Positions 11,617-46,674 of a stretch of 64,000 nucleotides of DNA are shown piece after piece. Source of the DNA: Minisyncoccota bacterium (GTDB lineage Bacteria; Patescibacteriota; Minisyncoccia; Phycocordibacterales; JABMNX01). The notes under the pieces are model-generated. The model did not search any database. It saw only the letters and a list, made by a program, of their open reading frames with translations, and had not been told where the DNA came from. The stretch lies in contig OZ244961.1 of the NCBI GenBank assembly GCA_965222715.1, positions 548,637 to 612,636 on the forward strand. Direction: 5' to 3'. Position numbers and translations under genes: made by a program. The first letter of the stretch is position 1, and each line of letters begins with the position of its first letter.

Positions 11617-11636
11617 TGGGTGCCTACCGAGAATCG
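11617..11636. repeat. echo of tRNA-His 3' end (T-loop to acceptor), direct repeat
   Basis: gggtgcctaccgagaatcg is identical to 11805-11823 inside tRNA-His, 168 bp downstream of the tRNA 3' end. Confidence 0.7.
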
Positions 11637-11803
11637 GGGTCAAGTTGCTAAATTCGCTAGGCTCATTAAGCACTTCCTCCCCGGACTCGGCGACAAGCCC
11701 GAGTTAACACTCGTCTTGTATACCGCCTCCGTCTTTCAATTCTCGTAAACACTGACACACAGTAAGACCCCAACACTTTCGTGTCAGGGCCTAACTGCAT
11801 GTT

Positions 11804-11877
11804 GGGTGCCTACCGAGAATCGAACTCGAATTTGAGGTTCCACAAACCTCCGTAATAACCGTTATACCATAGGCACC
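11804..11877 (-). tRNA. tRNA-His (GTG) with encoded G-1
   Basis: rc reads GGTGCCTATGGTATAACGGTTATTACGGAGGTTTGTGGAACCTCAAATTCGAGTTCGATTCTCGGTAGGCACCC. Anticodon loop TTGTGGA, G-1:C73 pair, cloverleaf stems check out. CCA not encoded. Confidence 0.8.
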
Positions 11878-11891
11878 ATATCTGCCTGCCC

Positions 11892-11921
11892 ATAAACGCC
11901 AAGAGTACTCTTGGCGTTTAT
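11892..11921. repeat. 30-nt perfect palindrome (copy 1 of 2), probable bidirectional terminator
   Basis: ataaacgccaagagtactcttggcgtttat, identical to 47723-47752. Overlaps the stop codon of the PduO gene. Confidence 0.7.
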
Positions 11922-12475
11922 GTATAGCTTGGCGACTCCTCGACTATACCAGAAAGATGGTTCGTAAGTCGAGCGAGTGCATAGAGAAGTGATGAAAGTC
12001 GATTAAGGTATGCAAGCGACCACTCACCCATTTCTCGTTCACCACTTTCAACCACTTCAACTACTCGCCGCTCAGCACGACGCGAAAGTGTGCGTGCTAT
12101 ATCAAATCGAGAAGCTAATTCAGTACCTCCAGAAATAAAAAATGAAGTGATTGGTGGTAGTTCTTTTTCTGCTCCATGAATAAGGGCTTCTGCGTCACGT
12201 AGTTTCTGCTCATACAGAGTCTTATCAGCACCAGCAAGCTCAGCTTGAATAATAAAAAGATTTTCTTGAATCGTATGTACAATATGTTCAAATGATTGGC
12301 TGTTTAGAGAGAAGCCACTTTCAGCACTCGCCACTTTACACAACCCAAGAAATGAATTTACCTCATCAAGCGTACCGAGGGCTTCGGCAACGGGTGACGC
12401 CTTAGAGATACGCTTCCCTTTCTCTGTATCAAATACCTTTGTTGTTCCTTTGTCTCCTTTTCCTGTAAAGAGCAT
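11918..12475 (-). CDS. ATP:cob(I)alamin adenosyltransferase, PduO type
   Basis: MLFTGKGDKGTTKVFDTEKGKRISKASPVAEALGTLDEVNSFLGL matches the PduO/MMAB N-terminus (TxxGDxGxT...R..K.....E.xGxxDELNxxxG). Confidence 0.75.
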   Translation of the reverse strand: MLFTGKGDKGTTKVFDTEKGKRISKASPVAEALGTLDEVNSFLGLCKVASAESGFSLNSQSFEHIVHTIQENLFIIQAELAGADKTLYEQKLRDAEALIHGAEKELPPITSFFISGGTELASRFDIARTLSRRAERRVVEVVESGEREMGEWSLAYLNRLSSLLYALARLTNHLSGIVEESPSYT

Positions 12476-12482
12476 ATATTAA

Positions 12483-13310
12483 TTACCAGTGTACTTCATC
12501 ACACACATCGCACTTTTTAAACTCACTATGATCAACAAAGAAGATTGCAACCCACCGAGAGACATCATGAGCAACCTCTTTATTTAATTTTGGATCAACA
12601 ACATGAAGTGACGGTGCAAAATCAACATCTGTTATTTTGTACCAATTCAATCCAGGAAACATTTCTACCTCATCTTCGCGTGAGGTAACCGGTTTTAAGT
12701 CATCAAGCGAGTGACCAACCAAAAGTCCAGGACCGCTCTGCGCAACTGGAAGCGTGCACCCACCACTATCAAAATGCTCAGTTAAGTAAAGGTGTGTATC
12801 GGGGCTCGGTGCACTTGTTCCGTAGCGAATAAACCGAAGTGCTGAGTATGTTGGATATGGTGAATTATCTGTATAAATCTTACTACGAATATCAGGGTAT
12901 CCACTTTCAAGTACCTCAACAAAACCATTGAACATATCGCACGCCTCTTCATACATACGATGCATTGCTTGAAGCATTTCAGTTGCTTCAGGACCACCCT
13001 TACTCTCTTTCTGTAAACGATCTTTATATGTAGGGTTATACTGAAACCAATCAATATCAGCTGGCTTACTGTCGTAGACACTGTAATGTTTGAAACCAAC
13101 TTCATTACACTTATTCTCTCCTAACGGAACAGGAAGAGAGAATTTCTCCTTTACCTCAGCAGGAAGACGGGTGAACGCAATAAATGTTTCTGCAGTTCTA
13201 TCAATCACCCCATCACTAAATGAAAACGGAATACGCACGTACGCATCGTTCTTTAACTGCTCTTTTGCTTTTACTAACGTAAGCATATTATTCAAAAGTA
13301 TTTCCTGCAT
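12483..13310 (-). CDS. 2-oxoglutarate/Fe(II)-dependent oxygenase-like protein (split paralog)
   Basis: EHFDSGGCTLPVAQSGPGLLV (HxD...GG.L..Q..GLQV facial-triad block of IPNS/ACCO-type oxygenases), then HVVD... and HDVSRWVAIFF (distal His plus RxS-like). C-terminus CDVCDEVHW. Paralogous to the C-terminal half of 18705-19916. Confidence 0.55.
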   Translation of the reverse strand: MQEILLNNMLTLVKAKEQLKNDAYVRIPFSFSDGVIDRTAETFIAFTRLPAEVKEKFSLPVPLGENKCNEVGFKHYSVYDSKPADIDWFQYNPTYKDRLQKESKGGPEATEMLQAMHRMYEEACDMFNGFVEVLESGYPDIRSKIYTDNSPYPTYSALRFIRYGTSAPSPDTHLYLTEHFDSGGCTLPVAQSGPGLLVGHSLDDLKPVTSREDEVEMFPGLNWYKITDVDFAPSLHVVDPKLNKEVAHDVSRWVAIFFVDHSEFKKCDVCDEVHW

Positions 13311-13662
13311 CTCTCCACCCACGCAATCCTTCTCTGTAGCACGAGACGTTTGTATATCCTGAACGCGCTAAACACATTGCGGCCATGTATGAGAGTCCAC
13401 AACCAAGACTACCGGAGTATGTGGTGACATATACTTCTTTATTCTCACCAAACTTCTTTTTAAACTTTGAGAGAAATACTGTTTCAATGTCGAGTATTTT
13501 TCCATGCTCATCCTTTTCAGAATAATCTTTCTGGTACGATATATTCTCCGCACCAGGAATATGATGTGCATCATAACTCCCTTTTGAAAGCGTATCGACA
13601 ATAATATCGCCACGTGTAAGACGTTTTTTAAATTCTTCTGTGGTGATGATGTCGATATGCAT
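13288..13662 (-). CDS. single-domain rhodanese (sulfurtransferase)
   Basis: AHHIPGAENI and the active-site Cys loop VTTYSGSLGCGLSYMAAMCL. Overlaps the 5' end of the oxygenase gene by ~20 nt, suggesting an operon with coupled translation. Start at the internal Met MHIDII. Confidence 0.65.
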   Translation of the reverse strand: MHIDIITTEEFKKRLTRGDIIVDTLSKGSYDAHHIPGAENISYQKDYSEKDEHGKILDIETVFLSKFKKKFGENKEVYVTTYSGSLGCGLSYMAAMCLARSGYTNVSCYREGLRGWRDAGNTFE

Positions 13663-13734
13663 ATTGAAATGTATCCAGTAGTGTAGCATACAAAGAAAAA
13701 GCCGGAGTGTTCGAGAGAACACTCCGGCGCAGCG

Positions 13735-14556
13735 TTACCGATTCCACGGAATTACCTTTTTCTCCAAGACCCAGATGAGGATCCAGGTTGTGATCCCACA
13801 TAGAGCAAGGAGTACCGTCCCCGAGATAATCATAGAGACGATAGGAATCTGGTTTGCAGCATGAATGAGACTTCCAACCCCGTACTGCCTATTCACCCCC
13901 TCCGAAAGGACCAGCATCAGCCAGCACACAGGAGACGCGAGCAGAAGACCGAGAAACATTCGAGGCAGAAGCGCGGGCATGATATGCCAATACAACTGCC
14001 ACCTGCTCGGACCCATGATAGCAATGTCTGCCATCAGCTCTCGGGTGTGCCTATCTTTTCCATAGAAGAGCTTGTATGAGCCCTGGAACGATAGGAGGAG
14101 TTGGTAGAGGAACGTTGCCCATATGCTGATTCCGTACTTCGGCCCCTCGTCAATACCCAGCCAGATGATCATGAGATACAAGACTGAGATCTTTGAGAAC
14201 GTCAGAAGAAACGGGATGACCACAATTGCACAGAACCGCGCATACGGAAACAGAGCAATGAGGATACCCATCGGAAACCCAATAAGGGTTCCGAACACCA
14301 GCCCCACACCAACTCGCTTGAAGCTCGCGAAAAGATGTTCAGGTAGTTGACCCCGCTCAAGAAGACGCACGAAGTCACCATACATCTCTGACGGACTTGC
14401 AAACAAGGACGAAATTGCCCCTACATCTCTCCCCACTTGCCACGCATAAAGTAGCGCAGTCATAAGAAGAAGATAGAACGCAACCCCCAAAAGGATTGGG
14501 GGGTTCGGCCCGACTACATGTGCAATCGGGCCGTCATTTTTTTGTCGTACCCACAT
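13735..14556 (-). CDS. ABC transporter permease
   Basis: 6-TM protein with the EAA-like loop ELMADIAIMGPSRWQLYWHIMPALLP. Confidence 0.65.
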   Translation of the reverse strand: MWVRQKNDGPIAHVVGPNPPILLGVAFYLLLMTALLYAWQVGRDVGAISSLFASPSEMYGDFVRLLERGQLPEHLFASFKRVGVGLVFGTLIGFPMGILIALFPYARFCAIVVIPFLLTFSKISVLYLMIIWLGIDEGPKYGISIWATFLYQLLLSFQGSYKLFYGKDRHTRELMADIAIMGPSRWQLYWHIMPALLPRMFLGLLLASPVCWLMLVLSEGVNRQYGVGSLIHAANQIPIVSMIISGTVLLALCGITTWILIWVLEKKVIPWNR

Positions 14557-14629
14557 TACACACCTCCAGATGTTTCCTCATTGGAAAGAAAAAGAACAAA
14601 AGAGGTTCAGTAGAGCCCTCGCAAGAACG

Positions 14630-15673
14630 CTACTGAACCCGAATACCGCTTTCGTCAAAGACGTGTAGATGAGCTGGATCAATTGCAACCAGACACTCAC
14701 CAGAGAGTGGCGAGGCTGTGTGCGCTTCCATGGTTTCGCCCGAACGAAGCCGTAGTGAAACCTTGAAATGTGAACCAAAAAACCTACACGACTCAACTTG
14801 TGCAAGGATACCGGCCGAGTTATCCCGAGATACTTCTTGTACCGAGAGATGCTCTGGACGGATACCACACCACTTCGCTCCTTTCACGTTACCGATCTGG
14901 GAGAGTACCCCAAGAGGCACTGACGTCATGTCGCCAATAAATTCAGCGACAAAACGATCGTGTGGAGATTGGTAGAGTTCTTGATATGACCCGACCTGTC
15001 TCACTCGCCCACCATCCATGACCACGATGGAATCAGCCAACTCAGCTGCCTCCTCTTGGTTGTGGGTAACGTAGAGAATTGTCTGCCTGAGATCAGAGAA
15101 CAGCTCTTTAAGCAACACCCTGATTTCTTTTTGAAGTGGCTCATCAAGAAAGGTAAGTGGCTCATCAAGAAGAACTGCGCCAACCTGAGGAACCAGCACC
15201 TTTGCAGCAATACCCACTCGCTGACGTTCTCCTCCCGAAAGTTCTTTCGGATACTTATTGAGGAGGTGCGTGATGCCCACTTTTTGAGCAGCCTCACGCA
15301 CCACAGCAGTGCACACCTTTCCTGAAACATCAATCCCAGAAAAAACGAGCCACAGCTGTATATTCTTGAGGACCGTTAGATGATCCCATAGAGGAGTTGA
15401 CTGCGAAAGCAGACTCATGCTCCGTGTCTTGGGCGCTGTGTGAGTAACATCTCTGCCATCAATCAACACAGCGCCATTGGATGGCATTTGCAGCCCGGCA
15501 ATACTCCACAAAAGTGTTGTTTTGCCACACCCTGATGGGCCAAGGAGAACAGTTGTTTTTTTTGCTTCGATCGCAATTGAGACATCACGAACCGCGGTAA
15601 TGACTTCCTGCGTCGGACGGAACCACCGTCCACGTACAGGGAACGCAACCGAGAGGTTGCGCGTTTCAATGTG
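14630..15673 (-). CDS. ABC transporter ATP-binding protein with C-terminal TOBE-like domain
   Basis: Walker A GPSGCGKTT, signature LSGGERQRVGIA, Walker B LLDEP. The ~120-aa C-terminal extension resembles PotA/CysA/FbpC-type regulatory domains. Start at the internal Met MHIETRNL. Confidence 0.7.
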   Translation of the reverse strand, partial: HIETRNLSVAFPVRGRWFRPTQEVITAVRDVSIAIEAKKTTVLLGPSGCGKTTLLWSIAGLQMPSNGAVLIDGRDVTHTAPKTRSMSLLSQSTPLWDHLTVLKNIQLWLVFSGIDVSGKVCTAVVREAAQKVGITHLLNKYPKELSGGERQRVGIAAKVLVPQVGAVLLDEPLTFLDEPLQKEIRVLLKELFSDLRQTILYVTHNQEEAAELADSIVVMDGGRVRQVGSYQELYQSPHDRFVAEFIGDMTSVPLGVLSQIGNVKGAKWCGIRPEHLSVQEVSRDNSAGILAQVESCRFFGSHFKVSLRLRSGETMEAHTASPLSGECLVAIDPAHLHVFDESGIRVQ

Positions 15674-15834
15674 CATGGCGCACCTCCAAGTTACATGATT
15701 ACTAACTTCAGCTACTATAGATACTTTCAGTTTAATTGTCAAAAAATATTGAAAAGAAGACGTGACAAAAGAAAAACGCGCCGCTAGCTTCCTAGCGGCG
15801 CGTTGGTATCCTGACTCATTCTCGAGAGAATACC

Positions 15835-16959
15835 TTAGTTGCTCCGACTGAGGGCCCTGTCGGCAATCCGAAGGTTTTCGACACCTCCGACATAGACACC
15901 GTAGTCAGCCATAACCTCAGGGTCAGCCGTGCAGCCGCCCATATTGGTAACGATGCGATCGATCATCTCATCGATGGCCGGCTCGTACATTTCTCCATAC
16001 TTGTCGAGTGAAATGTAGAGCTCGTTCGCCAAAGCAGTGCGGAATTCGGGAACGAGACGTCGCTTCTTAATATCCTCAACTGCTCGCTGCATTCCCCGAC
16101 AGAACATGTCGGCCAGCTCCTCTCCACGTTCAGTTTCGTAGAAACTCGCCATCATGACGATTCCAGACTCGGGAAATGGGCGAAACTGATCCGAGTTAAG
16201 GATGACTGCGTAGCCTTCGGTTTGCGCACGGAGATGAAACGGCGCCGCAACAACCGCAAGGTCGGTTACTCCATCCTTCATGCCAGCGTAGCGCTTACCA
16301 GATGCACCGAGCTGTACTCCGTAGACCACGTTTTCTCCGTGATCAGGAACAGTACCAGCAGAAACTGCTTCTCGATACATTTCCCGAGTGCCACAGAAGA
16401 ATGCGACCGGCGCTTCGCCAGCAGCGTTGAGCTCCTGGTTTTTGTCGACAACGTAGGCGATCAGGATGCCAGTCGCTGTGTTACGCGACGTTTCTTGGTT
16501 GATGATCGCATGCTGACGCTCCGTAACATAGAGACCCGGCTCGCAGAGCGACACTGAGATCGATACATCGCGAAGGACATTCTCGACAGATCCGACCATG
16601 TAGAGCCCTCTTCCTTGAGGGCCAATTAGGACATAGTTGTGTCCTGTCGAGAGTACGCTGGTGAGAACACAGTCGTCACCGCCGACGATCGAACACCCGA
16701 AGACGCGCTCGATTGAATTCGAGGCGCGTGCCTGACCTGAATTGAGCGCAGCAAACTGCTGGCCGGCGTCAGAGATTTTGAGGATGGTGACTTCTTCGTC
16801 GAAGAAGTCATTTTTGGCGGCGTAGTCAGGGACAAATCCTGCAGTCCACCACGTGTCCCAGATGACATAGCCGATTTGATCATCAGCGTATGCTTTCGAG
16901 GGGAGTACCGCAATCATCGCAACCGCGATGACAACGGCAAGAGTGCGAAGCGTATGCAT
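15835..16959 (-). CDS. ABC transporter periplasmic substrate-binding protein
   Basis: N-terminal signal peptide MHTLRTLAVVIAVAMIAVLPSKAYA, ~370 aa, directly downstream of the ATPase and permease. Subfamily not assignable by eye. Confidence 0.55.
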   Translation of the reverse strand: MHTLRTLAVVIAVAMIAVLPSKAYADDQIGYVIWDTWWTAGFVPDYAAKNDFFDEEVTILKISDAGQQFAALNSGQARASNSIERVFGCSIVGGDDCVLTSVLSTGHNYVLIGPQGRGLYMVGSVENVLRDVSISVSLCEPGLYVTERQHAIINQETSRNTATGILIAYVVDKNQELNAAGEAPVAFFCGTREMYREAVSAGTVPDHGENVVYGVQLGASGKRYAGMKDGVTDLAVVAAPFHLRAQTEGYAVILNSDQFRPFPESGIVMMASFYETERGEELADMFCRGMQRAVEDIKKRRLVPEFRTALANELYISLDKYGEMYEPAIDEMIDRIVTNMGGCTADPEVMADYGVYVGGVENLRIADRALSRSN

Positions 16960-17095
16960 AACGTACCTCTCTTTCTTTTCTGAATGTTACGGATTCTGCT
17001 TCAAACTAATCCAAAACGATAGTAGCATATACTCACAGTTGCGCAAGAAAAAGACCCGCAAGTAGCTAGCTTGCGGGTCGTTAAAGAGCATACGG

Positions 17096-18589: not shown

Positions 18590-18704
18590 TTTTTCACCTC
18601 CTTCCTGAGGATATTCTGGCATATATCTAATATGTTAGTGTAGATGAAACAAATAACGTGTCAATAAAAAAGCGGCGCCACTGGCGCCGCTTGAGTTTCC
18701 GGTA

Positions 18705-19916: not shown

Positions 19917-20084
19917 GTGTAAACCTCTTTTTCATCTAGTTATTGCACATAGTAGCATCGCACCTCTAACCAAGAGTATTGATGCTTCTATTTCTAAAAA
20001 CCAGTATCTTGTTATTTTGTATAAAAGTCAATTACACCAGCCACATTGCGAAAGCGTCTATGCAGTGGCATCATACACACTACT

Positions 20085-22011: not shown

Positions 22012-22083
22012 AAACTCTTAACCTTATACTTTCGAGTCCTTCAACTAAAATGAACATACTGACTTTCGCCAGCATGTTCATCT

Positions 22084-22168
22084 TGGTGCCCAGGGCGGGA
22101 CTCGAACCCGCATGCACTAAGTGCCACGGCCCTCAACCGTGTGTGTATACCAGTTCCACCACCTGGGC
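22084..22168 (-). tRNA. tRNA-Leu (GAG), type II with long variable arm, CCA encoded
   Basis: rc reads GCCCAGGTGGTGGAACTGGTATACACACACGGTTGAGGGCCGTGGCACTTAGTGCATGCGGGTTCGAGTCCCGCCCTGGGCACCA. Anticodon loop TTGAGGG. Confidence 0.8.
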
Positions 22169-24568: not shown

Positions 24569-24586
24569 TACTGTATGTATTACCAT

Positions 24587-24614
24587 AAAACGGCTCAAAA
24601 AGTGAGCCGTTTTA
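24587..24614. terminator. bidirectional rho-independent terminator
   Basis: aaaa-cggctca-aaaag-tgagccg-tttta. Confidence 0.6.
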
Positions 24615-24616
24615 TG

Positions 24617-24640
24617 ATTTTGTGGGCGATGAGGGACTTG
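24617..24640. repeat. echo of tRNA-Val 3' end plus 6-nt trailer, direct repeat
   Basis: attttgtgggcgatgagggacttg is identical to 24781-24804 (the last 18 nt of tRNA-Val plus its trailer), 147 bp downstream of the tRNA 3' end. Confidence 0.7.
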
Positions 24641-24786
24641 GTGTCAGCTCACATCACTATTTTAGTACGCTGCGCTTCTAAAATAGTGTGTGGCTCCTAC
24701 CCGATCTCCCTCGCCTTCGGCTCAGTCCGATGTTCAAGTCCGCTCGCAAATTAAAACAGCATAACCAAAGTTATACTGTTTTAATT

Positions 24787-24860
24787 TTGTGGGCGATGAG
24801 GGACTTGAACCCCCGACCTTTTCGGTGTAAACGAACTGCTCTAGCCAACTGAGCTAATCG
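24787..24860 (-). tRNA. tRNA-Val (TAC)
   Basis: rc reads GGGCGATTAGCTCAGTTGGCTAGAGCAGTTCGTTTACACCGAAAAGGTCGGGGGTTCAAGTCCCTCATCGCCCA. Anticodon loop TTTACAC. CCA not encoded. Confidence 0.8.
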
Positions 24861-24988
24861 CCCTTATGTACCTCTTATGTACCTAAACCAAGCTCTTAAC
24901 CTGTTTTAACCTGGTAGATATAGAGTATATATAAAAAATCTTAAAATTCAATGTATGTTTAATACTTTTTTATATACCATGTGGTAGA

Positions 24989-26134: not shown

Positions 26135-26150
26135 TAATTTTGATGTCCCC
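26135..26150. repeat. degenerate echo of tRNA-Arg(TCT) 3' end
   Basis: gtccccgcgaggaatc versus tRNA gcccccacgaggaatc (14/16), with the preceding ttttg also shared. 158 bp downstream of the tRNA 3' end. Confidence 0.5.
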
Positions 26151-26265
26151 GCGAGGAATCCAATATAATAGGCGTCAGGTTTCTAAGCTCACTACGTTCG
26201 CTAAGAACCTCCTGCCCGGGCTCGCAATCCCTCGCAAGCTCAGGATATAGCTCCGCCTCACAAAA

Positions 26266-26295
26266 CTAGAGAAAACGAGACGCAGGTCTCGTTTT
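26266..26295. terminator. bidirectional terminator downstream of tRNA-Arg(TCT)
   Basis: gaaaacgagac-gcag-gtctcgttttc perfect hairpin flanked by A/T runs. Confidence 0.6.
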
Positions 26296-26307
26296 CTTGC
26301 AGTTTTG

Positions 26308-26379
26308 TGCCCCCACGAGGAATCGAACCTCGATTAGCTCCTTAGAAGGGAGCCGTTCTATCCATTAAACTACAGGGGC
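26308..26379 (-). tRNA. tRNA-Arg (TCT)
   Basis: rc reads GCCCCTGTAGTTTAATGGATAGAACGGCTCCCTTCTAAGGAGCTAATCGAGGTTCGATTCCTCGTGGGGGCA. Anticodon loop CTTCTAA. Confidence 0.75.
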
Positions 26380-26753: not shown

Positions 26754-26758
26754 AAGTA

Positions 26759-29925: not shown

Positions 29926-30315
29926 TTAGCTTCTCTTTCCTTGCTTATCAAGAAAACGCTGCAAAATAAGCGCTGCCGCAGAAGCGTCGATCATGATCTG
30001 TGTACTTCCCTCTCGACGAGCTTCTGATGAGGTGAAGAATTCTGGTTGAAGATACACTGGGATGTTGGTTTCTTTTTCAAGAAGCGCAACAAAACGTTTA
30101 ATATCGTCCATAATAAAATTTTCTGATCCATCAGTATTTAGTGATTGACCAACTACTATTGCTTCTACAGTATGGGTTTTAATAGTATCCCGAATCTCAC
30201 CAATGAGGGTGTGCGAATGCCTGAGAACAGCTTTAGGAAACGCAAGAGTGCCTGTATCATCAGAAATTGCTACACCAACCTTTTTAGTACCATAATCAAT
30301 GCCGAGATATTTCAT
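29926..30315 (-). CDS. ruvX: putative pre-16S rRNA nuclease / Holliday-junction resolvase-like YqgF
   Basis: MKYLGIDYGTKKVGVAISD N-terminus. Confidence 0.8.
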   Translation of the reverse strand: MKYLGIDYGTKKVGVAISDDTGTLAFPKAVLRHSHTLIGEIRDTIKTHTVEAIVVGQSLNTDGSENFIMDDIKRFVALLEKETNIPVYLQPEFFTSSEARREGSTQIMIDASAAALILQRFLDKQGKRS

Positions 30316-30379
30316 GTGTTGATTAAGTGTACCATGGCTTTAAAAAGCTGTTATTTGATGATACAGTGTACTCGACCAA

Positions 30380-30466
30380 GGAGAGGTGGCAGAGTGGTCG
30401 AATGCACCGGTCTTGAAAACCGGAGTCTCGGAAACGGGACCGTGGGTTCGAATCCCACCCTCTCCG
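30380..30466 (+). tRNA. tRNA-Ser (TGA), type II
   Basis: GGAGAGGTGGCAGAGTGGTCGAATGCACCGGTCTTGAAAACCGGAGTCTCGGAAACGGGACCGTGGGTTCGAATCCCACCCTCTCCG. Anticodon loop CTTGAAA, long variable arm. Confidence 0.8.
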
Positions 30467-30473
30467 CATTTAT

Positions 30474-30503
30474 AAAAATAATGGCTTTATGCCATTTGTT
30501 TTT
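30474..30503 (+). terminator. rho-independent terminator after tRNA-Ser
   Basis: aatggc-tttat-gccatt followed by tgttttt. Confidence 0.55.
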
Positions 30504-30636
30504 GTACACTAAGAGGAAGAACGGGGTTCGAACGGAACTTTTGCGCCGTAAGGAATAAGCAAAAGTCCGCGGCTCTGGAGGAGCACTGCGAGTATATTGT
30601 GAATACCTGGAACAATACGAGCAGTGTGGAGGAAGT

Positions 30637-30656
30637 GGAATCCCACCCCCTCCGCA
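30637..30656. repeat. echo of tRNA-Ser 3' end
   Basis: ggaatcccaccccctccgca versus tRNA cgaatcccaccctctccgca (18/19 over the core), 171 bp downstream of the tRNA 3' end. Confidence 0.65.
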
Positions 30657-30677
30657 ATGTATTAAAATTTTTATCAT

Positions 30678-37794: not shown

Positions 37795-38238
37795 TTAAAG
37801 CTGGGTTTCTACAGGAAGTCCAGAAAGCTGCCAGTTTTCAATACCACCTTCAATTCTTTGTATATTATAAAATCCCTGATGCTCCAAATAATGGTACCCT
37901 ACCCCAGATGCTAACGCGCCGCTACAAATAAGGACAATGGTTTTATCAGTGTTTCGTGGTAGGTTTCTCCACTCATCATAAAGGGTATGGAGTGGCATAG
38001 AAATTGAGTCAGTCGCATGAACCCGATTGTAACTATTCTCACCTCGAACGTCGATAAATACAAAATCATCAGGATTCTGAGAGAATGCTTCGTAGAATTC
38101 AACAGGATCGACGTCATCAATTGTTGGAGTAATGAGGGGGAAATGTCTTACTGGTGTGAGTAACACAAAAAGTACGCCAATTAAAAAGAAGGCCACTCCT
38201 ATTCCGATATTTTTAAGCGTGAACATATTCCTTATCAT
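37795..38238 (-). CDS. membrane-anchored rhodanese-domain protein
   Basis: N-terminal TM, DVRGENSYNRVHATDSISMP and active-site loop LICSGALASGV. Confidence 0.55.
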   Translation of the reverse strand: MIRNMFTLKNIGIGVAFFLIGVLFVLLTPVRHFPLITPTIDDVDPVEFYEAFSQNPDDFVFIDVRGENSYNRVHATDSISMPLHTLYDEWRNLPRNTDKTIVLICSGALASGVGYHYLEHQGFYNIQRIEGGIENWQLSGLPVETQL

Positions 38239-38256
38239 ACGTATAAGTATAGCGTA

Positions 38257-39921: not shown

Positions 39922-39933
39922 TGAGCTATCGCA

Positions 39934-41877: not shown

Positions 41878-41929
41878 CTACGAAACGCATGGAAAAATAC
41901 TAAAAAAATGTTAGAGTAAGCCAGCATAT

Positions 41930-42003
41930 GCTCCCGTAGTTTAATGGATAGAATACAGGTTTGCGGAACCTGCGATCCAAGTTCGATTCTTGGCGGGAGC
42001 ACC
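41930..42003 (+). tRNA. tRNA-Arg (GCG)
   Basis: GCTCCCGTAGTTTAATGGATAGAATACAGGTTTGCGGAACCTGCGATCCAAGTTCGATTCTTGGCGGGAGCA. Anticodon loop TTGCGGA. Confidence 0.7.
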
Positions 42004-42013
42004 GAGATAAATA

Positions 42014-42043
42014 AAAAAATCCAATGTTTTGGATTTTTTTATT
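42014..42043 (+). terminator. rho-independent terminator after tRNA-Arg(GCG)
   Basis: atccaa-tgtt-ttggat followed by ttttttt. Confidence 0.6.
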
Positions 42044-42212
42044 TAGAACGCAAACTGCTTTGCGTTCGTGTCTCGGTGCTAAGCGCAGCTATATCGCCAG
42101 GCGATAGCGAGCTGGGGTCGAGCGCACTTAGTATTTTGTGAACTTGTGAGACAAAATACTTAGTGACGGGTGACCACAAAACAAACCAGTTAAAGCTAAC
42201 ATCAAAAGAAAG

Positions 42213-42242
42213 AAAAACACCTCAGGCACCTGAGGTGTTTTT
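42213..42242. terminator. bidirectional terminator (rpsT 3' end)
   Basis: aaaaacacctcagg-cac-ctgaggtgttttt. Confidence 0.65.
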
Positions 42243-42268
42243 CTTAATACTCTATAATACTATTGAGA

Positions 42269-42531
42269 TTACCCTATCTTCTTAATTGCTGCGGCGAGCC
42301 GAGACTTCTTGCGACTCGCAGTATTTTTCTTAATAACTCCGCGTTTCGCTGCTTTATCAATTGCTTTATATACCTTCGGGAGGAGTGAGCGAGCATCATC
42401 AGCTTTTTTATCTTTAATAAAGTCCCCCACCTCTTTCAGGGTCTCTCGCATAGTGCGTGTGCGACGCACATTAAAGACTCGCTTCTTGAGCGAGCTGCGA
42501 TGCGCTTTTTGTGCTGATTTTGTATTTGCCA
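42269..42531 (-). CDS. rpsT: 30S ribosomal protein S20
   Basis: MANTKSAQKAHRSSLKKRVFNVRRTRTMRETLKEV. Start at the internal Met of the track ORF. Confidence 0.85.
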
Positions 42532-42600
42532 TATGTGGCAAAGAATATACCAGTTTTATTGAAGTGACGCAACTAAAAGGTTGAGGTATGATAAACAACA

Positions 42601-43170
42601 ATGATTGCCCAATTAGAAGGAACTGTGAGTGGAAGTGGTGTTGACTACATCGTACTTAAAGTAAGTGGTGTTGGTTATCGAGTACACATGACTATTGAAT
42701 CAACTGCTCGAGCAATACAAGATCAAGGACTCTCTCTCTGGACCCATCTTTCGGTTCGGGAGACTTCTTTAGAACTTTACGGATTCTATAGTGAAGATGA
42801 ATTGTCTTTTTTTGAAATGCTTATTTCAGTTTCTGGTATTGGTCCTAAATCAGCTCTCGGTATTATGAATCTTGAAACTGTAGAAACACTTTCTTCGGCA
42901 ATTTCTCAAGGAGATACAACCTACCTCACCAAAGTTTCAGGTATTGGTAAAAAAAGTGCTGAGAAAATTATTATTGAACTGCGAGATAAAATTGTTGCTC
43001 GTGAAGACAGTGAACAGCACGCTCATGCAGAAGATGCTGATGCACTTGAGGCACTTCAATCTTTAGGATACTCAGTGAGAGAGTCACGAGAAGCATTGAA
43101 ATCAGTGTCAAAAGATATACATGGCGCACAACAACGGATTACTGAAGCATTAAAGGTACTCGGAAAATAG
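42601..43170 (+). CDS. ruvA: Holliday junction branch-migration complex subunit RuvA
   Basis: MIAQLEGTV...GVGYRVHM..., two HhH motifs (VSGIGPKSALGIM; VSGIGKKSAEKII). Confidence 0.85.
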   Translation: MIAQLEGTVSGSGVDYIVLKVSGVGYRVHMTIESTARAIQDQGLSLWTHLSVRETSLELYGFYSEDELSFFEMLISVSGIGPKSALGIMNLETVETLSSAISQGDTTYLTKVSGIGKKSAEKIIIELRDKIVAREDSEQHAHAEDADALEALQSLGYSVRESREALKSVSKDIHGAQQRITEALKVLGK

Positions 43171-43173
43171 CGT

Positions 43174-44430
43174 ATGAGATTCTTTAAAAGACTTATTCCA
43201 ACACCCCTCTTTAGAGTAGTACAACCAACCTATCACTTTCTTCTTGCCGCCATTGGTGCACTCTATTACCGCTTCCCCTCAAAAAAATTAGTAGTTATTG
43301 GGGTCACTGGTACTAAGGGTAAATCAAGCACTGTTGAATTGATTAACAGTATTTTTGAAGAGGCTGGGTATACAACCGCAGTATTGAGTACGATTCGCTT
43401 CAAGGTTTCAGACAATTCCCTTCCTAACCGACTCAAGATGACCATGCCGGGGAGATTTTTTGTGCAATCATTTCTCAATCAAGCACACACACGGGGGTGT
43501 ACTCACGCTATTATCGAAATGACCTCAGAGGGTGTTAAACAATTTAGACATCGCTTCATTGACCTTGATGCACTGGTGTTTACCAACATCGAACCAGAGC
43601 ACATTGAGTCACACGGCTCATTTGAAAACTACCTTAATGCAAAACTTAAGCTGCGTGACCTACTCGAACGCTCAAGTAAACAAGATACCGCTCTAGTTGC
43701 AAATAGTGATGACTCTCATGGCAAAGAATTTCTCAAGGTTAGAAAGGCAAAGCCGATTCCTTTTTCACTCTCAAAAACAAAACATAGATTAACAAATAAT
43801 GGTATTGAAATTACCTATAACGAAATATGTATCACCTCCCCTCTTGAAGGCGCTGGAAATGCAGCAAATATACTTGCTGCCATTAAGATTGGAGAGCACT
43901 TCTCGATCCCACTAGAAGCAATACAAAAAGGTATTGAGAAAGTAGAAGTTATCCCAGGAAGATTTGAGCACATTGACCTACATCAAGCATTCGATGTGGT
44001 GGTTGATTATGCGCACACCCCGCAATCACTTGAACAGCTATATCAAACGTTTAAAGATAAACATAAAATATGTGTTCTGGGGAACACTGGCGGCGGCCGA
44101 GATACCTGGAAACGCCCTGAAATGGGGCGTATTGCTGAAGAGTATTGTGCACGGGTTATTCTCACCAATGAAGACCCGTATGACGAAGATCCAGAGAAGA
44201 TACTTCGTGATATGACAGAAGGAATGAAGAGTGGACCAACAATTATACTGGACCGTCGAGAGGCGATGCGCACTGCATTTACCCATGCCAAAAAATACCC
44301 TGGGAATACAGTAGTTCTTATTACTGGGAAAGGAACTGATCCATATATTATGGAAGCAGAGGGAGTACGAACACCGTGGAGTGACGCCCGTGTAGCACAA
44401 GAAGAATTAGAGCGGCTACAAAACTCTTAA
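43174..44430 (+). CDS. Mur-ligase-family protein (MurE/MurF/CapB-like)
   Basis: VIGVTGTKGKSST P-loop and NIEPEHIESHGSFENYLNAK (Mur-ligase middle domain). Confidence 0.55.
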   Translation: MRFFKRLIPTPLFRVVQPTYHFLLAAIGALYYRFPSKKLVVIGVTGTKGKSSTVELINSIFEEAGYTTAVLSTIRFKVSDNSLPNRLKMTMPGRFFVQSFLNQAHTRGCTHAIIEMTSEGVKQFRHRFIDLDALVFTNIEPEHIESHGSFENYLNAKLKLRDLLERSSKQDTALVANSDDSHGKEFLKVRKAKPIPFSLSKTKHRLTNNGIEITYNEICITSPLEGAGNAANILAAIKIGEHFSIPLEAIQKGIEKVEVIPGRFEHIDLHQAFDVVVDYAHTPQSLEQLYQTFKDKHKICVLGNTGGGRDTWKRPEMGRIAEEYCARVILTNEDPYDEDPEKILRDMTEGMKSGPTIILDRREAMRTAFTHAKKYPGNTVVLITGKGTDPYIMEAEGVRTPWSDARVAQEELERLQNS

Positions 44431-44475
44431 GGAAAGTATTAACAAGCACCTAAGAACAGCGTAGTATTACTCAAT

Positions 44476-45396
44476 ATGAGACAGTATCCACACACACAGA
44501 AAGGTGAAGCGACTCGGGATTTTTTGTTTTTTGTTGCCATTCTTTTTGTACTTGGGGTGTTGTGGGTGCTCTCTGGTGGCCCTTCTCAAAACAGCGGTGG
44601 ATTACTAGGAGGGCAAAGACTTGGATTTTCTCCAATTGAGCGTAATGGCGAGAGAGGCACCCAGGAAGAGCGGTACGAGGAAATCCGTGAGCGCTACGGA
44701 GACGCAAGAGACTTTGGAGAAACCTCTCCACATTGGGGGCTCGTAACGATAAACTCATCGCGAGGTATGAAAGAAACTCGAGTGCAAGAAGAGTATCTCA
44801 TTCTTGAAGTATCAAGAAATCTAAAAGAACCACTTACCGTAACCAACTGGAGGATTCAGAGTATGGTCTCAAATAAAAGTGTCTCCATTCCTGAAGCAAC
44901 AAAAATTTCTACATCAGGAACAGTGAACATTGAACAACCGCTTGTTGTTTCTCCTCGTGATGTACTCTATGTCGCAACAGGACATTCACCAACAGGATAC
45001 TCTTTTAAGGTAAATAAATGTTCTGGATACTTTGAACAATTCCAAAACTTTACTCCACGACTAGAGAAGTCATGTCCACTCCCTCTCGATGAACTTGATT
45101 TTGCTGAGAGCGATCCAATTCGTTTTGGTGGCGACTGTCTTGACTACATTGAGGACATTCCCCGCTGCCACATGCCTATCGATGCCCTTCCTATTGGATT
45201 CAATAATTCATGTGCCCTCTTTATTACTGAAAAAATAAACTACAACACCTGCGTAGAGAATCATCGAAACGATACTGACTTCTTTGAACCAGAGTGGCGT
45301 GTGTTCTTACGCCAAAATGAAGAGTTGTGGGACACAAGGGACATTGTTCGCCTACTTGATGAAGAAGGAAAAGTTGTTGATGTACTATCCTACTAA
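44476..45396 (+). CDS. hypothetical membrane-anchored protein
   Basis: N-terminal TM, 306 aa, Cys-rich C-terminal half. No recognisable motif. Confidence 0.35.
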   Translation: MRQYPHTQKGEATRDFLFFVAILFVLGVLWVLSGGPSQNSGGLLGGQRLGFSPIERNGERGTQEERYEEIRERYGDARDFGETSPHWGLVTINSSRGMKETRVQEEYLILEVSRNLKEPLTVTNWRIQSMVSNKSVSIPEATKISTSGTVNIEQPLVVSPRDVLYVATGHSPTGYSFKVNKCSGYFEQFQNFTPRLEKSCPLPLDELDFAESDPIRFGGDCLDYIEDIPRCHMPIDALPIGFNNSCALFITEKINYNTCVENHRNDTDFFEPEWRVFLRQNEELWDTRDIVRLLDEEGKVVDVLSY

Positions 45397-45403
45397 CCAT
45401 TTC

Positions 45404-45904
45404 TTACTCACCCACTGACTCAGGTATATAGTGGAATAAAATAATACCTGCAGTAACACTGACATTGAGTGATTCCTTCTCTCCATGCATTGGAATGTCA
45501 ATAACTGTATCGCACATACCGAGGACTTCCCTACTCAACCCCTCAACTTCGCTTCCAAATACAAATGCTGTTTTACCTGAAGGAGAAAAGGATGTATATG
45601 TTTTTGATTCTGGTGTCTGTTCAACACCCACAATCGCGTACCCCTCGTCTTTTAATGAGTCTAGAACGTCTTTAATCTCTACTTTCTCCCACGGTACTGT
45701 TTTTTCAGCACCAAGTGCAGTTTTGTGAAGCGCTACGACCTCTCGACCAAAACGATCGATTGGCGCCGGTGTGTAGCCAGTAAGGTACACCTTATGTACA
45801 CCAGCAGCGTCAGCCGTGCGGAAAAGTGATCCGACGTTATGTACACTTCGTACATTATGAAAAATGACTACAGTATCCATGTACCATGAGAGTAGCGGTG
45901 GCAC
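45404..45904 (-). CDS. SpoU/TrmH-family RNA 2'-O-methyltransferase
   Basis: HNVGSLFRTADAAG, FGSEVEGLS and IPMHGEKESLNVSVTAGIILF SPOUT motifs. Confidence 0.75.
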   Translation of the reverse strand: MPPLLSWYMDTVVIFHNVRSVHNVGSLFRTADAAGVHKVYLTGYTPAPIDRFGREVVALHKTALGAEKTVPWEKVEIKDVLDSLKDEGYAIVGVEQTPESKTYTSFSPSGKTAFVFGSEVEGLSREVLGMCDTVIDIPMHGEKESLNVSVTAGIILFHYIPESVGE

Positions 45905-45935
45905 GAGGTAAAGTCAACGTGCTACAATAGCTTCT

Positions 45936-46361
45936 ATGCTCAGTGTATTCCCTTCACTTTTTATATTAAGTATCTTTGTACCAGTACTACTCCGTCTTGT
46001 GGTTGGCATCTTCTTTTTTACTATTGGCTACCGACACCTCACTAAAGAACAAGACGTGCTTGGTAAAGAATTCAGTGCCTGGTTTCAAACATACCTACCA
46101 TTTCTTGCACCTGTTGCGAAACCCTACGTGGTGCTTCTTGCTCTTATTGAAATACTCCTTGGCCTTACACTGATTGCTGGGTTCCTCACCCAAGTAGCTG
46201 CGCTTATTGGTTTCATCTATATGATAAAGTTGGTCTGGCTACAGAAAGGATTCCCTCACTTTGCGAATCATGAGCGACTTGTCTACATTCTCTTTGCGGT
46301 AGTACTCTTCTCACTCCTTATTCTTGGACCAGGTGCACCAGCAGTTGATTTGCCGCTCTAG
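45936..46361 (+). CDS. DoxX-family membrane protein
   Basis: 141 aa, 4 TM, with LRLVVGIFFFTIGYRHL and LIEILLGLTLIAGFLT patterns. Confidence 0.5.
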   Translation: MLSVFPSLFILSIFVPVLLRLVVGIFFFTIGYRHLTKEQDVLGKEFSAWFQTYLPFLAPVAKPYVVLLALIEILLGLTLIAGFLTQVAALIGFIYMIKLVWLQKGFPHFANHERLVYILFAVVLFSLLILGPGAPAVDLPL

Positions 46362-46429
46362 TTTCAAAATATCTATCTAGAATTATCTCTCATGTGTGGT
46401 ATAGTCTGTGGGTACTCATGAGTACAGAC

Positions 46430-46504
46430 CGCCTATAGCTCAGTTGGTAGAGCAACTGCCTTTTAAGCAGTGGGTCGTAGGTTCGAGTCCTACTGGGCGG
46501 ACCA
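46430..46504 (+). tRNA. tRNA-Lys (TTT), CCA encoded
   Basis: CCGCCTATAGCTCAGTTGGTAGAGCAACTGCCTTTTAAGCAGTGGGTCGTAGGTTCGAGTCCTACTGGGCGGACCA. Anticodon loop CTTTTAA. Confidence 0.8.
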
Positions 46505-46515
46505 ATGAAACTTAG

Positions 46516-46548
46516 CACCCGACGCGATGAGCGTTGGGTGTTTAGTTT
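46516..46548 (+). terminator. terminator after tRNA-Lys
   Basis: cacccgacgc-gatga-gcgttgggtg followed by tttagtttt. Confidence 0.5.
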
Positions 46549-46658
46549 TACTCTGATCCAGTAGGACTCGAAAGACGGAGCAGCGGGTCCCCGCTTTAGC
46601 GGGGCTGCGAGTCGGGGTCGCGAGTACTTAGCGCGTAGCGCTTAGTAACTCGTGACCA

Positions 46659-46674
46659 AGTCCTACTGGGCGGA
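46659..46674. repeat. echo of tRNA-Lys 3' end; partner of antisense copy at 46558-46574
   Basis: agtcctactgggcgga is identical to tRNA positions 46485-46500, 155 bp downstream. ccagtaggactcgaaag at 46558-46574 is its reverse complement. A GC-rich hairpin-dense segment lies between. Confidence 0.7.

Follow-up and report, generated by a model that had tools for sequence, protein, structure and literature searches.

Candidate miniature mobile elements with a conserved two-hairpin core downstream of tRNA genes in Patescibacteria

We found that the tRNA genes in the window, a 64-kb stretch of a roughly 617-kb genome, are followed by modules that have no coding capacity and that combine a conserved structured core with copies of the adjacent tRNA's own 3' end. 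We rate the chance at about even that these modules are a new family of miniature, nonautonomous, tRNA-targeting mobile elements whose core folds as RNA or as single-stranded DNA (ssDNA). A nonautonomous miniature integrative element was also among the options of an earlier, sequence-only reading of this DNA, and we likewise rank it first. We found no match to the elements in Rfam, among phages and plasmids, or in the literature, and this family of Patescibacteria (CPR bacteria) is apparently undescribed so far.

On the tRNA-sense strand, the order is tRNA, terminator hairpin (P0), T', two-hairpin core, and echo. We use T for the tRNA segment from about position 56/57 through 73 together with a few bases of the trailer. 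T' is an antisense copy of tRNA positions 54-73 and is 11-20 nt long, and the echo is a direct repeat that spans C56/G57 through the discriminator. Using ARAGORN and Rfam, we found seven tRNA genes in the window, not the eight reported earlier, and a module or remnant at 7/7 of them. A direct-repeat test recovered repeats at all five tRNAs claimed to have echoes (His, Val, Arg-TCT, Ser, and Lys), where a module is present with its echo 146-170 nt downstream of the tRNA end. The same test found no direct repeats of at least 10 nt upstream of the window tRNAs. The calculated chance expectation for a 16-nt exact match within 400 nt is ~1e-7. The window features are as follows, where R1 is a covariance model that we built from five window cores.

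11804-11876, - strand: tRNA-His (GTG), host gene of the first module (ARAGORN; Rfam tRNA)
11746-11803, - strand: His trailer with hairpin P0, separating tRNA and antisense copy (sequence)
11735-11745, - strand: His T', antisense of T-loop/T-stem, CGAGAATTGAA, 11 nt with one G-U
11635-11737, - strand: His core, P2 and P3 (R1, 79.8 bits, E = 5.8e-16; fold z = -3.3)
11617-11636, - strand: His echo, C56 to discriminator, exact 19 nt (20 with the next base)
22084-22168, - strand: tRNA-Leu (GAG) (ARAGORN)
22029-22039, - strand: Leu remnant, truncated antisense stub GGACTCGAAAG, that is, GGACTCGAA plus AG; core missing
24789-24863, - strand: tRNA-Val (TAC) (ARAGORN)
24732-24747, - strand: Val T', GCGAGCGGACTTGAAC, with a 10-nt antisense run
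24639-24735, - strand: Val core (R1, 45 bits, E = 4e-8)
24617-24640, - strand: Val echo, exact, 19 nt of tRNA and 5 nt of trailer
24584-24616, - strand: second terminator, after the Val echo
26307-26379, - strand: tRNA-Arg (TCT) (ARAGORN)
26270-26297, - strand: Arg-TCT terminator hairpin P0
26170-26261, - strand: Arg-TCT core, without a clear T' (R1, 102 bits)
26144-26160, - strand: Arg-TCT echo, degenerate, 9 nt exact, 17 nt with 2 mismatches
30380-30467, + strand: tRNA-Ser (TGA) (ARAGORN)
30480-30496, + strand: Ser terminator hairpin P0
30512-30532, + strand: Ser T' remnant, …GGGGTTCGAA, partly decayed (by eye)
30533-30637, + strand: Ser module, divergent core (CGGA, hairpin, AGG, long hairpin), laid out like the others
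30638-30656, + strand: Ser echo, 11 nt exact, 19 nt with one mismatch
41930-42003, + strand: tRNA-Arg (GCG) (ARAGORN)
42078-42176, + strand: Arg-GCG core, without T' or echo (R1, E = 1.6e-11)
46429-46504, + strand: tRNA-Lys (TTT) (ARAGORN)
46514-46542, + strand: Lys terminator hairpin P0
46558-46572, + strand: Lys T', CCAGTAGGACTCGAA, 15 nt, perfect antisense of tRNA 54-68
46570-46658, + strand: Lys core (R1, 72.6 bits; fold z = -5.8)
46659-46674, + strand: Lys echo, 16 nt exact, A58 to A73
46665-46768, + strand: possible additional core, degenerate and fused to the Lys echo (borderline R1 match, 23.6 bits, E about 0.003-0.005)

The five copies described from the sequence alone stood; the Arg-GCG core, the Leu stub, and the weak second Lys core had been missed, as had the wide spread of the family and the palindrome of which T' is one arm. 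The Arg-TCT echo, which a 9-nt insert splits from its core, had been misplaced at 26135-26150. The antisense copies described at Lys, Val, and His were borne out at the lengths listed. The tRNA-Lys gene encodes CCA, which is missing from the Lys echo. The Ser core was not detected in the R1 scan of the window.

R1 matched 26 cores from 17 sources (metagenomic and NCBI contigs), and syntenic relatives added 5 further cores of this family. Because the metagenome sample was seeded by the motif GAAAGACGGAG…GAGTC, subfamily frequencies are biased. The conserved core is 90-120 nt long and consists of two hairpins, P2 and P3, each carrying a basal internal loop that is small and purine-rich and, in many cases, a tandem-GA/triloop cap; the junction nucleotides are conserved, and the core has no similarity to tRNA. 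In the core alignment, 93.3% of cells are paired, compared with 29-41% in slid controls. Covariation is strong, with both-side changes at 17/19 core pairs, and 0/500 shuffles matched the observed pairing and covariation. The sum of G-T and T-G pairs is 14, and that of A-C and C-A pairs is 2; thus, the tRNA-sense strand is the folded strand. The common origin proposed for the modules was upheld by the covariance-model matches and the covariation. We also confirmed that GAAAGACGGAG is common to the Lys and His spacers. Its Val equivalent is GAACATCGGAC, not ccgaaggcgaggg as had been suggested, which sits in hairpin P2.

The cores are linked to tRNA genes. ARAGORN placed a same-strand tRNA 26-297 nt upstream of 20/26 R1 cores, and at one more (L076) the upstream tRNA-Leu is cut by the contig end. 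We found cores flanking 17 tRNA species, mostly directly downstream. In 13 copies, the core starts 62-67 nt after the tRNA end, and in 11 copies the echo is an exact 19-mer starting at C56. Cognate runs are 16-19 nt, versus a mean of ~5 nt for noncognate tRNA controls. Echoes are degenerate at Arg-TCT, L252 Lys, and L007#2, and neither T' nor echo accompanies the window Arg-GCG core, L007#1, or L251 Lys. The suggestion of a tRNA-processing mimic is weakened by such bare cores and by the CCA-less Lys echo. It is also weakened because in several copies the inverted repeat crosses the discriminator into the trailer and therefore defines no free acceptor-like 3' end.

Folding supported the long basal stem that had been predicted, in which the antisense copy and the echo enclose the hairpins. 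T' and echo would pair as P1 and close a three-way junction with P2 and P3, in RNA or in ssDNA. [quoted passage not shown]

Direct and inverted repeats both extend into the unprocessed trailer; because of this, and because the Lys echo lacks CCA, the repeats appear to be of DNA-level origin. Consistently with the sequence-only reading, they resemble T-loop-class att duplications, beginning at C56/G57 and often running a few nucleotides into the trailer. According to our model, the unit would enter at the universally conserved T-loop, between GTTC and GA, in a site-specific DNA-level event. Like a tRNA-integrating island, it would supply a new 3' end for the tRNA, which would thereby stay intact. 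The displaced original 3' end would be the echo, which would decay over time. The folded T':T duplex may rebuild the double-stranded target within a single strand, in the way that folded-ssDNA recombination sites do, for example integron attC and CTX-phage attP, and the conserved core may be the part recognized by a trans-encoded enzyme. Counting against this model, some cores lack both T' and echo. Moreover, every new tRNA needs a matched T', so that retargeting requires both T and a perfectly complementary T' to be rewritten, and we know of no integrase or transposase that rewrites T and T' for each tRNA.

The elements look mobile and adaptable to any tRNA. In syntenic relatives, the orthologous sites at Arg-GCG and Lys hold the element, lack it, hold two, or have another subfamily. 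A single tRNA can carry tandem, mutually divergent units, as at L085 Trp and L007 Arg-GCG. Copies inside one genome are only about 60-80% identical. The nearest neighbor of a core usually lies in another contig, beside a different tRNA, and one subfamily occurs at six tRNAs. We saw neither two near-identical copies nor a site filled in one strain and empty in a close relative of it. MurE identity with the closest relative is 69%; excision and insertion are therefore inferred from patchiness, which repeated loss could also produce. One core (L103) lies downstream of rpsG with no tRNA; it is probably an ectopic copy, holding a tRNA-3'-like 20-mer, P0, an inverted copy of the 20-mer, and the core, with no echo. 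This pattern fits a unit of T-P0-T'-core. At L252, substitutions are common to T' and echo and absent from the resident tRNA, which fits better with T'-core-echo moving together. The unit boundaries thus differ with the locus taken as a guide. The scan of 45 window ORFs revealed no integrase, transposase, or reverse transcriptase. No recombinase or transposase could be linked to the elements in the 64 kb covered, which weighs against the mobile-element reading.

It is unlikely, in our view, that the modules are instead host-beneficial small RNA (sRNA) genes whose T'-echo helix copies the acceptor/T-stem of the adjacent tRNA. Such RNAs could be made by read-through or cotranscription, perhaps cut out by tRNA-processing enzymes. 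Their target would be the tRNA, the gene for it, or its synthetase, and they could serve, for instance, as decoys, chaperones, sensors, or antisense regulators. The strong core covariation, the conserved junction nucleotides, and the occupancy of every window tRNA agree with this, and tandem G-A motifs with a G-U bias are typical of RNA. T' mismatches to the perfect complement often preserve wobble pairing, and T' is intact while the echo decays in L033, L076, and L045. The window Arg-GCG core has an orthologue at L007 8516-8636 (84% identity) with a compensatory U-A to C-G change in P3, and it is strongly conserved between genomes whose MurE proteins are only 64% identical. Purifying selection on a useful RNA fits this as well as a selfish element does. 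However, a terminator separates tRNA and module, and no sigma-70-like promoter precedes any module. The element is missing at the same tRNAs in the related genomes L006, L248, and L249 and is therefore not essential. Core subfamily is independent of tRNA identity, and the tandem copies at one tRNA are divergent. Nor is P1 a clean acceptor mimic, because pairing passes the discriminator and the echo lacks CCA, and 17 different perfectly matched helices have no ordinary evolutionary route.

We regard as quite unlikely a guide-bearing, target-templated insertion system, with the core serving as scaffold for a guide made of RNA or ssDNA. A trans-encoded nuclease or recombinase would be steered to the tRNA gene by T', which spans up to 20 nt and complements the tRNA-sense strand, by the echo, which is identical to that strand, or by both, and T' would be written from the target at insertion, e.g., by fold-back synthesis at the terminator hairpin. 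If this were true, the element would be programmable for any tRNA. A T' of 11-20 nt beside a conserved scaffold resembles guide-plus-scaffold RNAs. T' is the far arm of a long palindrome (tRNA 54-73, trailer, and terminator) centered on the terminator loop, as fold-back copying predicts. One core subfamily, with P2 GGCGGTATACAAG…CTTGTCGCC, is matched to six tRNAs (His, Arg-GCG, Gly-TCC, Gly-GCC, Pro, and Asp). The core 3' end abuts the flank-derived echo like transposon-encoded omega-RNAs, whose 3' end adjoins flank-derived sequence in IS200/IS605 TnpB systems. RNA-guided TIGR-Tas systems are known from Parcubacteria (PMC12045711), which also counts for this reading. Against it, we found no effector gene in the window and no match to Rfam guide-RNA families. 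The guide would be self-sequestered, because guide and complement are in the same molecule, and an echo-guided nuclease would also cut the occupied tRNA gene, which has the same sequence. The internal loops, at just 3x2 nt, are not programmable like IS110 bridge RNA loops.

It is very improbable that the modules are debris, cut down to about 150 nt, from full-size islands integrated at tRNA genes or from tandem tRNA duplications that decayed: T-loop-to-3'-end direct repeats are an integrase att signature and some echoes are degenerate, but this reading is contradicted by the same covarying core at 17 tRNA species in many organisms and by the constant 62-67-nt offset, leaves the matched antisense copy unexplained, and meets a core unlike tRNA and no integrase pseudogene.

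The proposed mobile elements share features with four known systems. [quoted passage not shown] In contrast to those islands, the unit measures about 170-190 nt, lacks an integrase or any other ORF, has a conserved covarying structured core and an inverted att-segment copy, and uses at least 17 tRNAs within one family. As in integron attC and CTX-phage attP(+) (XerCD), one specific strand folds, the stem is conserved by structure and not sequence, G-T pairs are tolerated on the folding strand only, the folded stem would rebuild the duplex chromosomal target, and arrays or tandems lie beside the target. Here, however, the stem is a tRNA 3' end in place of R/L boxes or dif, the "variable terminal structure" is highly conserved (P2/P3), and any IntI or Xer link and ssDNA involvement are putative.

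MITEs and PATEs, including IS200/IS605 derivatives with omega-RNA-bearing right ends, are likewise small, noncoding, and hairpin-rich, with terminal inverted repeats (here T'/echo), many copies per genome, insertion beside a fixed short motif (here T-loop GTTC), and a structured region that stops exactly at flank-derived sequence. Unlike in MITEs and PATEs, the inverted repeats here vary by locus to match the adjacent tRNA, copies within a genome are diverged, and there is no fixed-length target-site duplication; we saw no parent IS, TnpA, or TnpB and no Rfam omega-RNA match. Finally, as in tRNA-like mimics (tmRNA domain, viral TLS, and mascRNA-type minihelices), the P1 strand is continuous from the acceptor 3'-strand complement to the T-stem 3'-strand complement, which formally makes P1 an acceptor/T-stem minihelix that ends at the discriminator. 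In contrast to these mimics, P1 runs through T-loop positions 57-60, passes the discriminator into the trailer in several copies, has no T-loop and no CCA, and is missing altogether from some cores.

We compared each of the tRNA genes in the window with the 400 nt downstream of it. ARAGORN and Rfam gave seven such genes, not the eight counted in the sequence-only reading. We found direct copies (echoes) of the tRNA 3' segment (T) that were exact over 19 nt for His, 19 nt for Val (24 nt counting the trailer), 16 nt for Lys, 11 nt for Ser (19 nt with one mismatch), and 9 nt for Arg-TCT (17 nt with two mismatches). The Arg-TCT echo had been misplaced and lies at 26144-26160. Antisense copies (T') were found for Lys (15 nt), Val (10 nt), Leu (9 nt), and His (11 nt, including one G-U), and the Val string previously equated with GAAAGACGGAG sits within a hairpin. 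The same search found no repeat of 10 nt or more upstream of any window tRNA. There is no ORF between the direct repeats (147 to 171 nt), and Pfam scans of the 45 window ORFs gave no integrase, transposase, recombinase, reverse transcriptase, guide-RNA effector, TnpA, or TnpB.

The window also holds ordinary housekeeping genes (among them those for PolA, a MurE-type ligase, PBP1, PilM, RuvA, ribosomal protein L19, thymidylate synthase, and UppS). The window MurE has a 100% identical counterpart on a 617-kb contig. The next closest relatives by MurE are 62 to 69% identical, with source names of Pacebacteria, Kaiserbacteria, or Parcubacteria, which places the window in a Patescibacteria (CPR) genome. 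We reached their loci via MurE homologues; a PilM scan of GTDB genomes gave distant, nonsyntenic loci only. At 60001-62000, G+C is 0.275 compared with about 0.41 elsewhere, over an ORF (60668-61771, minus strand) that is possibly of foreign origin or involved in surface polysaccharides. A strong hairpin between convergent genes (56522-56599, plus strand), with subthreshold matches to miRNA-precursor models (E about 0.003 to 0.02), is probably a long bidirectional terminator.

On the tRNA-sense strand, one unit runs in the order tRNA, P0, T', P2 hairpin, P3 hairpin, echo. P0 is a terminator-type hairpin with A- and T-tracts, called by the terminator scan at Arg-TCT, Ser, and Lys. T' is antisense to tRNA positions 54 to about 73 and always ends in …TCGAA. 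The first half of the core, after T', reads A-GAC-GGA(G)-hairpin P2-(C)GA-GUC, followed by one or two nucleotides, and the second half reads GGGNC-3-nt purine loop-long hairpin P3-GA(C)-NCC. The echo starts at C56/G57 right after the P3 strand and ends at the discriminator. Four of six modules were more stable than their own shuffled sequences (z ≤ -3.3).

Not every copy in the window is complete. Arg-GCG has a clear core (42078-42176) with neither T' nor echo, and at Leu, GGACTCGAA-AG alone remains past the terminator. The Ser module shares the layout of the others, with a divergence too great for the covariance model described below (R1). A weak second core lies downstream of the Lys echo. 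Counting the cores, the echoes, the Leu stub, and the divergent Ser module, seven of seven window tRNAs bear a module or a remnant of one. One further feature was found between the Arg-GCG terminator and core:

42046-42067, plus strand: extra perfect hairpin, GAACGCAAACTGCTTTGCGTTC

A string like this hairpin (agaacgcaaactgccttgctttcgt) is present downstream of the echo and terminator at the Arg-GCG module of the relative L252.

We built R1 from five window cores, and it recovers all five. R1 also matches directly downstream of tRNA-Arg-GCG in the relative L007 and finds further cores in syntenic relatives. We used the loose motif GAAAGACGGAG N25-55 GAGTC, too weak alone, to pull metagenomic contigs. 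About 15 of 120 motif matches in the metagenomes were real modules (R1 cores in 15 contigs). None of the 120 in IMG/VR was, and that sample gave no sign of a viral carrier. The His module had no blastn match among GenBank phages and PLSDB plasmids.

In an alignment of 26 sequences, 93.3% of the cells are standard pairs, compared with 71% for shuffled sequences and 29 to 41% with the partners slid, and 17 of 19 pairs have changes on both sides; these covariation figures are somewhat inflated, since the alignment was fitted to R1. Support for real helices comes from the slid controls and from the variety of pair types. G-T and T-G pairs together number 14, versus 2 for A-C and C-A, an excess that marks the tRNA-sense strand as the folding strand. 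A further 14 G-A cells are recurrent tandem G-A motifs, and P2 and P3 are frequently capped by N-GA-GC-NNN-GC-GA-N', with C(GNA)G triloops. Such motifs are stable both as RNA and as DNA and thus do not discriminate between an RNA and a single-stranded DNA (ssDNA) form. In all, there are more than 30 examples of a well-conserved RNA or ssDNA fold with strong covariation and no Rfam entry. In Rfam 15, tRNAs alone pass the gathering threshold, and no subthreshold match (E ≤ 10) falls over the module cores. Full-text searches of the literature gave no description of such modules.

The cores are linked to tRNA genes. ARAGORN placed a same-strand tRNA 26 to 297 nt upstream of 20 of the 26 R1 matches, and a tRNA-Leu cut at the contig end of L076 raises this to 21. 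Five additional cores in the relatives L251, L252, and L253 all lie downstream of tRNA-Lys or tRNA-Arg-GCG. The family uses at least 17 tRNA species: His, Val, Arg-TCT, Arg-GCG, Lys, Leu-GAG, Leu-TAG, Gly-GCC, Gly-TCC, Pro, Trp, Thr, Asp, Gln, Cys, Tyr, and, with its divergent module, Ser. The tRNA-trailing echoes first noticed in the sequence are real and nonrandom, and they reach considerably wider than was then stated.

The tRNA end and the core start are separated by 62 to 67 nt in 13 copies, and 11 copies have an echo that matches exactly over 19 nt starting at C56. T' reaches 18 to 20 nt in four contigs holding cores: L036 (Gly), L033 (Leu), L097 (Gly), and L045 (Asp); control runs against noncognate tRNAs averaged 5 to 8 nt. 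The sequence of P1, the helix of T' and echo, changes with the tRNA, and pairing is retained.

We aligned the reverse complement of the precore region with the tRNA and found that the inverted repeat passes the tRNA end and runs through the discriminator and trailer into P0, for example in L089, L097, L045, L036, and L072. Thus, tRNA positions 54 to 73, the trailer, P0, the complementary trailer, and T' make up a single hairpin of about 40 to 45 bp, centered on the terminator loop. T' can therefore pair with either of two partners, its own tRNA 3' end or the echo. The identity of the direct repeat often runs 3 to 10 nt into the trailer, and the Lys echo lacks the gene-encoded CCA. The inclusion of the trailer and the omission of the Lys CCA indicate that both repeats were copied from genomic DNA or a primary transcript and not from mature tRNA. 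Deviations in T' that preserve wobble pairing are common (C to T opposite G in His, L089, L097, L045, and the second tandem unit of L085; A to G in L076). Changes that do not preserve it also occur, so this pattern is merely suggestive.

Four lines of evidence speak for mobility. For the first, we compared the syntenic S20-RuvA-MurE…DoxX…PolA region of the relatives with that of the window. Filled and empty states at two orthologous tRNA sites were as follows.

tRNA-Arg-GCG, filled: window; L007 (two units in tandem, each from a different subfamily); L252/L253
tRNA-Arg-GCG, empty: L006, L248, L249/L250, L251
tRNA-Lys, filled: window; L251 (naked core); L252/L253 (subfamily unlike that of the window)
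tRNA-Lys, empty: L006, L249, L007

The tandem units at L085 Trp and L007 Arg-GCG are mutually divergent, and each has its own P0, T', and echo. For most cores, the nearest neighbor lies at another tRNA on another contig (Thr/Leu/Trp, 83% identity; Gly-GCC/Asp, 81%; window Lys and L036 Gly, 78%), and a P2 variant (GGCGGTATACAAG…CTTGTCGCC) is common to His, Arg-GCG, Gly-TCC, Gly-GCC, Pro, and Asp copies. The presence of the same core lineages at differing tRNAs indicates that core lineage is uncoupled from tRNA identity. T' and the echo always match the local tRNA, whatever the core lineage.

In contig L103, a core lies downstream of rpsG, without a tRNA. Ahead of this core stand TTCAAACATCTGTTACTCAA, P0, and then an inverted copy of that 20-mer, and no echo is found downstream. 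The 20-mer is laid out as a tRNA 3' end (7-nt loop, 5-nt stem, 7-nt acceptor strand, and discriminator), and L103 is probably an ectopic copy that arrived together with a T, P0, and T' of its own.

Other sequences were seen near these sites. A YafQ-toxin-family gene and an upstream small ORF, a toxin-antitoxin pair, are inserted beside tRNA-Arg-GCG at L251:4382-4639, a place where other relatives have a module or nothing. The L108 region upstream of the core (1200-1500, plus strand) has no tRNA. A GC-rich stretch there ends in GACCACAACGAAAG, similar to the 3' end and flank seen at the Arg-GCG modules of L007 (GTGACCACAACAAACAAA); this may be a decayed tandem unit. Downstream of the L007 tRNA-Ser (5555-5690, plus strand) are GC-rich hairpins and a CCCACCCTCTCC string that is closer to the window tRNA-Ser 3' end than to that of L007 itself. 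R1 gives no match there, and the stretch is possibly what is left of a module from a divergent subfamily.

Four further features were seen in L007 and L045.

L007:13455-14285, minus strand: LAGLIDADG_3 ORF, 0 nt past the 3' end of tRNA-Lys, where other genomes have a module
L007:4934-5410, plus strand: HNH ORF ending 30 nt before tRNA-Ser
L045:2738-3325, minus strand: 195-amino-acid ORF with a LAGLIDADG-like motif (LYGLGIGLYWGEG) and an N-terminal HTH-like stretch
L045:2440-2710, minus strand: tRNA-like gene (…agcccagatagctcagttggtagagcaccccc…gcagttcaatcctgcttctgggctc) split by about 200 nt, with no ARAGORN call

Free-standing homing-endonuclease genes also seem to favor tRNA flanks in these genomes. 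No echo lies downstream of the LAGLIDADG_3 ORF. The 195-amino-acid ORF immediately follows an Asp module that is truncated at its 3' end, and Pfam gave no match to it at E ≤ 0.01. We rejected homing endonucleases as the mobilizer, since the two LAGLIDADG-like ORFs are mutually unrelated and neither is echo flanked. The split in L045 is probably of the group I intron type described in PMC13011429.

The best-supported reading, which we hold with moderate confidence, is that the modules are a new family of miniature, nonautonomous elements on the tRNA 3' flanks of Patescibacteria, with a conserved folded core and a closing helix rewritten for each tRNA. How T and T' come to be respecified per tRNA is the most interesting point. 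The T' and echo of L252 have substitutions in common that are without a counterpart in the resident tRNA; either P1 coevolved or T', core, and echo moved jointly from a donor. By the evidence of L103, the traveling unit would instead be T-P0-T'-core. The two arrangements are circular permutations of each other, as would be expected if there were a circular intermediate.

The Arg-GCG cores of the window and L007 are 84% identical, with a compensatory change of U-A to C-G; MurE is just 64% identical. This conservation and the compensatory change indicate selection on structure, which equally fits a useful RNA or a selfish element that needs its own fold. That the modules are host small RNAs is unlikely in our view. 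We found no sigma-70-like promoter before the modules, a result to be read with the caveat that CPR promoters may differ from the consensus, and a terminator stands in front of each module. Transcription, if any, would thus come from read-through.

It is also possible, if doubtful, that the modules are mobile elements able to retarget themselves, with the recognition helix copied from the target at each insertion. A conserved scaffold of about 100 nt (RNA or ssDNA) would gain an inverted and a direct copy of the sequence past the T-loop GTTC, and any tRNA gene could become a landing site with its function kept. If true, this would be a site-specific insertion system of a new class in ultrasmall CPR genomes, nucleic acid guided and possibly protein minimal. 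A target-templated system that is truly guide based is also unlikely. We exclude debris and chance as explanations.

If the density of the window holds genome-wide, about 1% of this streamlined genome of about 617 kb would be modules (our estimate, with about 40 tRNA genes), which is hard to reconcile with simple junk. Rewriting of the helix across so many tRNA species (at least 17) could reveal DNA targeting programmable by target copying, a novel role for folded single-stranded att sites, or a new class of tRNA-linked regulatory RNA in an uncultured, poorly understood bacterial radiation. The modules also matter for annotation. Echoes can be mistaken for island att sites, and three mechanical ORFs in the window cross modules.

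11038-11673, minus strand: mechanical ORF crossing a module
30145-30558, plus strand: mechanical ORF crossing a module
30351-30677, minus strand: mechanical ORF crossing a module

In addition, the listed GTG start of a NUDIX gene falls inside the His module, and the true start is probably near 11560. Modules can thus cause start-site or spurious-ORF errors.

We compared the modules with known systems. By eye, we rejected a K-turn or box C/D (internal loops of 3 by 2 nt, not 5 by 2), hammerhead or hairpin ribozyme cores (wrong junction lengths), group II domain V (no GNRA loop and no AGC triad), a retroviral-type primer-binding site (CCA outside T'), and an IS110 bridge RNA (loops too small). 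No omega-RNA or HEARO-type Rfam family matched over the modules, even at E ≤ 10. TIGR-Tas arrays are short dual-spacer repeats (PMC12045711), unlike the modules. Group I introns of Patescibacteria tRNAs lie in the anticodon loop at position 35/36 (Nakagawa et al. 2026, PMC13011429). Here the tRNAs are intact, the modules lie past the terminator, and there is no Intron_gpI match.

P1 is formally an acceptor/T-stem minihelix, and the sequence-only reading had proposed a tRNA-processing mimic. Such a mimic, as a substrate of RNase P or the CCA enzyme, would be a helix of about 12 bp that closes with an unpaired discriminator (and CCA) and has a T-loop-like cap. P1 lacks these defining features: it spans 11 to 20 bp and takes in loop positions 57 to 60, the inverted repeat enters the trailer in L089, L097, L045, and L072, the encoded CCA is missing from the Lys echo, and the cap is the P2/P3 junction.

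Among mobile elements, T-loop-class tyrosine-integrase islands share the direct repeat that starts in the T-loop and runs to or past the tRNA 3' end. In contrast to them, the modules are tiny, lack an integrase, and carry an antisense copy. MITEs and PATEs are likewise small with inverted repeats, but in the modules these repeats (T' and echo) are locus specific and vary with the adjacent tRNA; no constant-length target-site duplication was found across the modules. IS200/IS605-type elements insert 3' to a fixed motif of four or five nucleotides and do not duplicate the target. The left flank of the modules is always …GTTC, even in the non-tRNA copy L103; conservation of the T-loop makes this uninformative, and the modules have a long direct repeat. 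Integron attC sites and CTX attP(+) share with the modules strand-specific folding and a stem that is kept by structure rather than by sequence. We consider these folded sites the most useful mechanistic analogy for how the modules might work.
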